NCBI GenBank assembly: GCA_900554365.1
Contig: USGY01000001.1
Coordinates: 27,214 to 91,213, forward strand
Reading direction: 5' to 3'
DNA: 64,000 nucleotides
DNA from: an uncultured Clostridium sp.
GTDB lineage: Bacteria > Bacillota > Clostridia > TANB77 > CAG-508
Part shown: one piece after another, positions 31,270 through 31,521 of the stretch
Layout: every line of letters starts with the position of its first letter
Numbering within the stretch: position 1 is the stretch's first letter
The notes under the pieces: model-generated
Seen by the model: the letters and a program-made list of their open reading frames with translations, nothing else
Told to the model about the DNA's origin: nothing
Database searches by the model: none
Made by a program: the position numbers and the translations under genes

Positions 31270-31521
31270 ATGAACAATGGAGATATACTTGTAGCAACAT
31301 TATATTGCATCGGATTAATGTTAGGATTGACATTCTTAGGAATGGGAATAGGAATGGGAATTTTAGGATCTAAAGTTGCAGAAGCAGTAGGAAGAAACCC
31401 TGAAACTAAAAGTGATATAGTACACAGTGTAATGACAATTTTAATAGTATTAGCAATATTTTTATTAATATTATTTGCATTTATATTTTTACTATTATTT
31501 TATAATCCATTATTAGCATAA
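31270..31521 (+). CDS. atpE: F-type ATPase subunit c-like proteolipid lacking the TM2 ion-binding carboxylate
   Basis: 83 aa and two TM helices. TM1 Gly motif [10 protein letters not shown] and loop RNPE (canonical RQPE). TM2 ([24 protein letters not shown]) contains no Asp or Glu. Confidence 0.75.

Follow-up and report, generated by a model that had tools for sequence, protein, structure and literature searches.

A c subunit without an ion-binding carboxylate in a conserved F-type ATPase module that encodes giant surface proteins

The DNA considered here, a stretch of 64,000 nucleotides from an uncultured Clostridium sp. (contig USGY01000001.1, positions 27,214 to 91,213 of the forward strand; hereafter the window), carries at 31270..31521 on the + strand a gene, c83, for an 83-residue c-subunit proteolipid with no acidic residue in either of its two membrane helices. 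The ion-binding acid is likewise missing from every ortholog that we collected, and the gene sits in a conserved set of 11 genes that also encodes an ATPase head with intact catalytic motifs, a central shaft, a putative peripheral stalk, and giant surface proteins. We lean toward the view that c83 is the ring subunit of a rotary ATPase of F-type descent that only hydrolyzes ATP, and that its ion-blind ring would act mechanically, as a rotor connected with the surface proteins encoded beside it. The first-pass annotation of the window, made from its letters alone, had singled out c83 but not the conserved set of 11 genes to which it belongs, with its giant surface proteins. In the F-, V-, and A-type ATPases characterized so far, it is to our knowledge always a carboxylate in the ring that links rotation with the flow of ions.

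The acid-less c subunit

The gene c83 opens with an ATG, about 8 nt downstream from the ribosome-binding site GGGAG. Its product has two hydrophobic segments, the GxGxGxG motif in the first transmembrane (TM) helix, here GMGIGMG, and the loop GRNPETK; both GMGIGMG and GRNPE line up with the same motifs of solved c subunits. On the Pfam model ATP-synt_C (PF00137) the protein scores 34.7 bits, above the gathering cut-off of 24. It also matches many NCBIfam models of F0 c subunits, every one of them below its equivalog cut-off, and its best matches in the Protein Data Bank (PDB) are c1/c2 of Acetobacterium woodii. The earlier description of c83 as a protein that keeps the hairpin hallmarks of a c subunit is therefore borne out by the PF00137 score, the GxGxGxG, and the R-N-P loop. 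What the protein lacks is the remaining hallmark of PF00137, an Asp or Glu in helix 2 (or its relocation to helix 1).

In phmmer alignments to solved c subunits, Ala62 of c83 (Arg42 plus 20) lies opposite the ion-binding Glu, and from the loop to the C-terminal NP these alignments are ungapped with A. woodii c1/c2, chloroplast c, Ilyobacter tartaricus, and PS3. A MAFFT alignment brings E. coli D61, PS3 E56, I. tartaricus E65, and spinach E61 into one column, where c83 has Ala. The first-pass annotation had counted no Asp or Glu in the second helix and had placed Ala or Leu at the carboxylate position; both sets of alignments agree with it, the residue being Ala62. The Na+-site residues of I. 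tartaricus, Q32, V63, S66, T67, and Y70, are aligned with Met, Val, Ile, Phe, and Leu in c83. Neither helix holds an Asp or Glu, and the sole acidic residues of the protein are D5 at the N terminus and E38, E45, and D49 in or beside the cytoplasmic loop.

The loss is shared by relatives. A scan of one genome per species found a relative of c83 encoded in 177 genomes; 80 of these loci were kept and, with six metagenome loci, make up the 86 orthologs used here. Their carboxylate column contains Ala (59), Thr (18), or Ser (9) and never Asp or Glu, and no acidic residue occurs anywhere in helix 2 in any of the 86. The acid is also absent from all 120 closest database clusters, which are 82–100% identical to c83. 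Because all of these clusters and orthologs are acid-less, the loss in c83 is neither a strain-specific mutation nor a sequencing error. The ratio of nonsynonymous to synonymous substitution rates (dN/dS), taken against the c83 gene of the window, is 0.03–0.2 and, as judged from the sequences, purifying selection acts strongly on c83 as an acid-less protein. Identity across clades is 64–86% for c, which makes it no less conserved than the catalytic beta subunit (64–74%) and much more so than the module proteins p279, p526, and p256 (26–40%). Among 70 unique sequences, the cytoplasmic loop of c (E38...G41-R-N-P-E-T-K47) is invariant and a large part of the outer helix is nearly so. In F-ATPases, this loop is the contact of c with gamma and epsilon.

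An enzyme of this kind could still translocate ions, as an F-type ATPase or synthase, if it used a non-canonical site built from the Thr or Ser of the carboxylate column, from His52, from water, or from a carboxylate lent by another protein. Thr or Ser does take the place of Ala in 27 of the 86 orthologs, many sequences have His52 close to where helix 2 begins, and in E. coli the carboxylate can be relocated to helix 1. We nevertheless consider such a site very improbable. No ionizable residue is conserved inside either helix and the key column is mostly Ala; His52 sits at the membrane interface and gives way to Gln, Ser, or Gly in 17 of the 70 sequences; the positions of the Na+ site are all aliphatic or aromatic; and neither a subunit a nor a stator arginine was detected in the module.

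The carboxylate had been called indispensable in every F-, V-, and A-type ring. Put so broadly, the claim needs some qualification, since individual hairpins without a carboxylate are known, as in c1 of A. woodii and in V-type proteolipids (c/c''), and in E. coli the group is movable to helix 1; the unusual point here is a single c gene without any carboxylate. In A. woodii the Glu is missing from just one hairpin of c1 and the ring keeps carboxylates, unlike that of the module. More generally, where a proteolipid has a carboxylate-free hairpin, its other hairpins carry the acid and the ring translocates ions, whereas the only c gene of the module has none. In the full-text literature open without subscription, we found no description of this module or of a ring made from a single c gene without a carboxylate.

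Fused c proteins with 3 to 14 hairpins, up to 1139 residues long and some of them Trp-rich, were noted separately (P0135, P0141, P0143, P0188, P0192, P0204, P0210, P0224, and P0225). In these, Glu is present in helix 2 of some hairpins only, the others having Gln, Asn, Ser, or Gly. A 77-residue acid-less c-like protein (P0144) lies on a contig of 979 bp that offers no useful context.

The ATPase head, shaft, and stalk

The genes around c83 follow the order of a canonical F operon, c-(b/delta)-alpha-gamma-beta-epsilon. The alpha-like subunit (32406..33737, + strand; 443 residues) keeps the P-loop GDKKTGKT and the arginine-finger motif SVSRLGG, and its C-terminal domain is about 60–70 residues shorter than that of canonical alpha. 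The gene of the beta-like catalytic subunit (34557..35954, + strand) starts with TTG at 34557, giving 465 residues, or at ATG 34581 according to gene callers, giving 457; aligned to solved F1, the protein retains GGAGVGKT, the catalytic GERSREG, the Walker B motif, and DELSNED. Beta reaches the cut-off of TIGR01039 (472 against 463 bits), whereas alpha remains below its own (440 against 554 bits). The central shaft is a gamma-like protein (33763..34548, + strand; 261 residues) that scores 96 bits on PF00231, for which the cut-off is 39.9. The P-loops, the catalytic Glu, the arginine finger, and the gamma shaft are all present in alpha, beta, and gamma of the module.

Epsilon is reduced. The epsilon-like protein (35944..36237, + strand; 97 residues), whose gene overlaps the end of beta by 11 nt, has the N-terminal beta-sandwich domain only, and the C-terminal helical hairpin of a two-domain epsilon is missing. 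Its PDB profile matches are only to epsilon and mitochondrial delta and are weak (E ~1.5), as is its NCBIfam epsilon match; orthologs have 79–145 residues, mostly 80–110. In bacterial enzymes, the C-terminal helices of epsilon inhibit hydrolysis.

Between c and alpha, where b and delta would be expected, lies p279 (31548..32387, + strand), with no sequence-level match to a family of known function. AlphaFold 2 models of p279 and of p192, described below, were built with alignments from database matches. That of p279 (predicted local distance difference test score, pLDDT, 77) shows an N-terminal TM segment that extends as a helix of about 68 residues; a disordered linker then leads to a helical bundle with a small beta-sheet at the C-terminal end. 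In a Foldseek search of the PDB, the top ~35 matches are all to delta/OSCP of F-ATP synthases, including mycobacterial b-delta fusions, although weak (best E 1e-2, prob 0.98). Because of these fold matches and of the position of the gene, we read p279, with moderate confidence, as a putative fused b-delta peripheral stalk.

No protein of the module matches subunit a (PF00119, ATP-synt_A). The candidate for a membrane stator element is p192, a small polytopic membrane protein (36227..36805, + strand); gene callers begin it at ATG 36248, which gives 185 residues, and ortholog alignments favor this shorter start over ATG 36227. It evolves fast, and its model (pLDDT 81.5) has six helices, the last two long. 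A polytopic reading frame of 170–190 residues nonetheless lies between epsilon and p256 in every locus, even where no sequence similarity can be recognized. No intramembrane Arg is conserved in the p192 family. As a cryptic subunit a, p192 was considered and rejected: it has no match in Pfam, among PDB profiles, or in NCBIfam, and Foldseek returned nothing significant, with only scattered subunit-a chains (E 1.3–4.3). A likeness of its NxYxxE to the stretch N214-E219 of E. coli a vanished on mapping to the family alignment and was dropped.

Because there is neither a subunit a nor a carboxylate, ion flow should be unable to turn the ring and the enzyme unable to make ATP; what is established for F-ATPases excludes that it makes ATP or pumps ions by the known mechanism. 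The first-pass annotation had proposed a ring that cannot couple ions and that fits a hydrolysis-type motor, and it gains support from the acid-free helix 2, the lack of a subunit a, the short epsilon, the intact catalytic motifs, and the invariant loop of c. These features support the conclusion that the c83 ring cannot work by the canonical carboxylate mechanism and would belong to a motor of the hydrolysis type; its role as rotor or anchor, and the hydrolysis-driven mode itself, we infer from sequence.

A different explanation would be that an ATP synthase operon was duplicated and the copy is decaying or without function, its annotation as ATP synthase being due to homology only. Databases do name alpha 'F0F1 ATP synthase subunit alpha', and alpha (at its C terminus), epsilon, and gamma are shortened. 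We think decay extremely unlikely, however, given the dN/dS of c reported above, the intact reading frames and catalytic motifs, the synteny across 80 species-level genomes of several classes, and the tight or overlapping arrangement of the genes with no internal terminator.

The module and its surface proteins

In the window, the module reads g3431, g1926, p526, c83, p279, alpha, gamma, beta, epsilon, p192, p256, with all genes on the + strand and closely packed or overlapping. A terminator-like hairpin (23618..23650, + strand) stands 3' of g3431 and a promoter-like site (23779-23807) 5' of g1926. Since no + strand terminator-like site was detected between 23858 and 37579, the genes from g1926 to p256 look like one transcription unit. 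Directly 3' of the module (37589-37861) are a promoter-like site (TTGACA-17-TAAAAT), a T-box leader (121 bits), and its terminator, which control valS; no separate terminator for the module itself was detected there.

The gene set is syntenic in the 80 genome loci, which come from species-level genomes of several Bacillota classes. In most other genomes the g3431 ortholog is 3' of p256, whereas the window has g3431 5' of g1926; RF39-like loci have c relocated to the 5' side of g1926, and two loci (L066 and L067) have another order again, yet the set stays together. The hosts are uncultured Clostridia, Lachnospiraceae (the cultured Kineothrix alysoides, NZ_JPNB01; Candidatus Merdisoma; and metagenome-assembled genomes labeled Roseburia), Oscillospiraceae, Erysipelotrichaceae/Coprobacillus, RF39-like Bacilli ('Mycoplasma sp. 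CAG:956'), and metagenome-assembled genomes labeled Mollicutes. Chromosome OZ006978.1 is another complete carrier of the module. The source samples are guts of human, rabbit, chicken, goat, and deer.

Four proteins of the module are exposed at the surface according to their predicted topology. The giant g3431 (13317..23612, + strand; 3431 residues) has a TM segment at either end, the N-terminal one a signal-anchor, each with a basic tail on the cytoplasmic side; its ectodomain spans about 3370 residues. It gave no family match in Pfam, NCBIfam, or PADLOC. The other three, g1926, p526, and p256, have one N-terminal signal-anchor and a large ectodomain each. In g1926 (23858..29638, + strand; 1926 residues) the TM segment is followed by a conserved membrane-proximal domain, a low-complexity linker, and a long, beta-rich ectodomain. 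The single-pass p526 (29672..31252, + strand; 526 residues) has a basic N terminus, the TM segment, a novel membrane-proximal domain of about 180 residues, a linker, and fn3, and the single-pass p256 (36809..37579, + strand; 256 residues) has a Lys-rich cytoplasmic tail, the TM segment, and an ectodomain of about 215 residues. None of the four proteins as encoded in the window matches a curated family. By profile, the C-terminal half of p526 matches fibronectin fn3 in the PDB (E 7e-10), and p256 has no PDB profile match. p526 occurs in nearly all loci, and p256 is conserved across loci.

The four are related in pairs. Neither internal repeats nor BLAST-level similarity was found among them, and only profile–profile comparison shows their kinship. 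TM helices gave part of the first hhalign signal, and the comparison was therefore redone without them: the membrane-proximal ~170 residues of p526 and g1926 proved homologous (prob 93%, E 3e-7), and those of p256 and g3431 were weakly similar (prob 70%, E 4e-5). Outside the window, most genomes have the two genes of a pair next to each other, with one pair on either side of the ATPase genes. The cytoplasmic N terminus of p526, MRKLxxxNK (29672-29710 in the window), with a nearly invariant Arg2, is conserved across clades although the TM helix is not, which suggests a specific contact on the cytoplasmic face.

Of 21 g1926 orthologs, 13 carry fn3 and 7 carry collagen GXY repeats. In the Lachnospiraceae, Oscillospiraceae, and Coprobacillus clades, the repeats directly follow the membrane-proximal domain, and the collagen-like run hints that the g1926 stalk may trimerize. 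Residues ~265–350 of ten g1926 orthologs (L021, L032, L047, L049, L051, L052, L058, L066, L067, and L076) were seen to consist of an acidic collagen-like (GXY)n of 10–29 triplets; the g1926 of the window has an Asn/Thr-rich low-complexity linker in its place.

More divergent relatives were also found. Three loci (L087, 1-20255; L088; and L091) share a cluster with the order 693/701, 1827/1828, 779/781, c, 312/314, alpha, gamma, beta, epsilon, 157, and a protein of >1508 residues, the numbers being protein lengths; their c, too, is acid-less and about 42% identical. In L091 this order runs 701-1828-781-c-314-alpha-gamma-beta-epsilon. The 779-residue protein of the L087-type cluster matches the N-terminal profile of p526 (E 2e-25), and the epsilon counterpart of L087 (84 residues) carries only PF02823. 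In L087 and L088, the giant genes have long reading frames only if TGA is read as Trp, and this suggests that the module also occurs in Mollicutes of genetic code 4 or in another TGA-recoded lineage. A further locus, L089 (1-7659), is of a minimal type and encodes two small b-like proteins made of a TM segment and a coiled coil (130 and 142 residues), an acid-less c (84 residues), alpha (419 residues), gamma, an enlarged beta (547 residues), and an 80-residue protein in the position of epsilon.

In the window, the genes flanking the module are housekeeping and sporulation genes. Within 5830-8526 and ~40700-43403 we noted the germination protease Gpr, YtxC, a cluster of STAS, anti-sigma-kinase, and sigma-factor genes resembling spoIIAA-spoIIAB-sigF, and SpoIID. 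The module thus lies among core genes of the chromosome of a walled, spore-forming member of the Clostridia (~26% GC) and not on a mobile element. The 64-kb window holds no canonical F- or V-type ATPase, and PADLOC gave no meaningful defense-system match for the module. Elsewhere, two adjacent reading frames (59051-59557 and 59664-60119) match the N- and C-terminal halves of the Mbeg1-like family (PF11187), which looks split or frameshifted.

A rotary drive weighed against known systems

From these parts we infer rotation, the direction of energy flow, the partners that contact the ring, and the cellular purpose as follows. The machine would consist of an alpha3beta3 head, the gamma shaft, the short epsilon, p279 as peripheral stalk, and a ring of c hairpins whose membrane surface is wholly hydrophobic. 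Driven by ATP hydrolysis, gamma, epsilon, and the c-ring would rotate against a stator made of alpha3beta3, p279, and probably p192, so that the c-ring would be the torque-transmitting rotor in the bilayer. The ring would hand mechanical work to the TM anchors and membrane-proximal domains of g1926, p526, p256, and g3431, of which some may move with the ring and others with the stator, and a possible purpose is the movement, tensioning, or remodeling of long fn3-rich surface fibers. Hydrolysis with work delivered to surface proteins is suggested by the invariant gamma/epsilon-contact loop and the conserved outer helix of c, by the loss of the inhibitory domain of epsilon, and by the fixed link of the ATPase with anchored fibrous proteins. 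The F1-like ATPases of mycoplasmas, which power surface machinery, provide a precedent (PMC11864180, PMC12994834).

Several points weigh against this reading. Conserved synteny is the sole link between the ring and the surface proteins, and a smooth hydrophobic ring would offer no obvious handle for the transfer of torque. p192 has no assignable fold, which leaves the membrane stator undefined, and the delta-like assignment of p279 comes from weak Foldseek E-values (~1e-2), though the matches are unanimous. Finally, L089 has an acid-less c with F1 genes and shows no giants on its short contig of 7.6 kb, so the giants may not be obligatory partners.

The same parts could be arranged differently, with the c-ring as the static tether of an F1-like ATPase that energizes or gates a step by which the giant surface proteins are inserted, secreted, or assembled, in the manner of FliH/FliI/FliJ. 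These three are homologous to b-delta, alpha/beta, and gamma, and FliH is itself thought to be a b-delta fusion, as p279 seems to be. The alpha and beta of the module also score on FliI/SctN models, and N-anchored partners of 1926 and 3431 residues might need help with export; the type III export apparatus has been cited as a relative of rotary ATPases (PMC11864180). The scores of alpha and beta, however, are 440–472 bits on F1 models against 170–230 on those of FliI/SctN (best scores 173–231 bits, cut-offs 380–620), and the module has two paralogs, alpha and beta, whose head would be a heteromer with a full gamma and an epsilon. No export-gate homologs were found in the module with Pfam or NCBIfam, and the anchors look like ordinary signal anchors of the Sec type. 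Nothing else in the module is as conserved as the ring subunit and its gamma/epsilon-contact loop, a constraint that a simple tether would not need and the reason why we rate the tether below the rotor, as a possibility to be kept in mind but unlikely.

Compared with canonical F1Fo (atpIBEFHAGDC; for c, above all the Na+-type subunits of A. woodii and I. tartaricus), the rotor-like enzyme that we favor has the same gene order, the c hairpin with GxGxGxG, the R-N/Q-P loop, and the C-terminal NP(F/L), an alpha, beta, and gamma that pass or approach the family thresholds, and, in its putative stalk, a predicted delta/OSCP-like fold. It differs in that c has neither the carboxylate nor the residues of the Na+ site, that no subunit a was detected, that b and delta appear fused, that epsilon is without C-terminal helices and alpha shorter at its C terminus, and that five extra membrane proteins, including two giants, are present. 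The N-ATPase (alternate F1Fo, atpDCQRBEFAG) is likewise a divergent F-type operon, the second one beside a housekeeping enzyme, but it keeps subunit a and an ion-binding c, and the module does not. Scores on the alt_F1F0 models are far from their cut-offs (c 16 against 131, alpha 368 against 750, beta 411 against 752, and gamma 32 against 282 bits).

The closest functional parallel would be the F1-like X0 ATPases of mycoplasmas, of which Type 2 is the G1-ATPase of Mycoplasma mobile gliding (MMOB1660/1670) and Type 3 is MSC_0618/0619 (PMC3369863, PMC11864180, PMC12994834). According to Béven et al., these enzymes drive mycoplasma-specific systems (PMC11864180), and Berlureau et al. report that Type 3 is required for the function of MIB-MIP, the antibody-cleavage system (PMC12994834). 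Their clusters comprise seven genes, for a 12-TM protein, P2, gamma, epsilon, P5, alpha, and beta, and have no c (PMC3369863, PMC12994834). Like them, the module has extra F1-derived alpha, beta, gamma, and epsilon beside membrane proteins not of Fo type, and both are thought to drive machinery of very large surface proteins by hydrolyzing ATP. Unlike them, it has a c and a putative b-delta-like stalk, another gene order, and no 12-TM protein. Its alpha and beta fall below the NCBIfam cut-offs for Type 2 (389 against 600 and 382 against 850 bits) and Type 3 (316 against 520 and 405 against 570 bits), no homologs of X0 proteins were found in the module with NCBIfam, and alpha and beta match canonical F1 better than the M. 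mobile G1-ATPase (9io5), with E-values of 1e-115 against 5e-92 for beta and 1.5e-99 against 1.1e-82 for alpha. By analogy, then, the module may work like the mycoplasma X0 ATPases, yet it is no member of them and appears structurally nearer to a canonical F1Fo minus subunit a and the carboxylate.

Tentatively, and with more doubt than belief, one may go further and see in the module an ATP-powered rotary drive for the surface filaments of gut Bacillota. Its F1 head would spin the ion-blind ring, which would serve solely to carry torque through the membrane and would turn or wind extracellular fibers fixed within or about it. The g1926 stalk, possibly trimeric and in some lineages collagen-like, would then stand on the rotor axis, with g3431, p256, p192, and the b-delta stalk as stator. 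The ancestor from which the mycoplasma motors for gliding and MIB-MIP arose may have a surviving relative in this module.

The proteins of the module are at present annotated at NCBI as ordinary ATP synthase subunits or as hypothetical proteins. The ATP synthase labels can send metabolic reconstructions astray for gut Clostridia, Lachnospiraceae, and RF39-like bacteria. What would be new here is an F-type ATPase repurposed as the motor of surface machinery, and we see a real chance that it represents a new class of transmembrane rotary drive. A widespread and strongly conserved F-type machine with ring, shaft, stalk, and head kept and the carboxylate and subunit a lost would show that the rotor ring can be put to a purely mechanical use. 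It would also help with a question raised by the mycoplasmas, that of the route by which the force of an F1-like ATPase crosses the membrane and reaches machinery at the surface. The module is a simpler and more F-like case, and its hosts include organisms with the standard genetic code; at least one of them, Kineothrix alysoides, is in culture.

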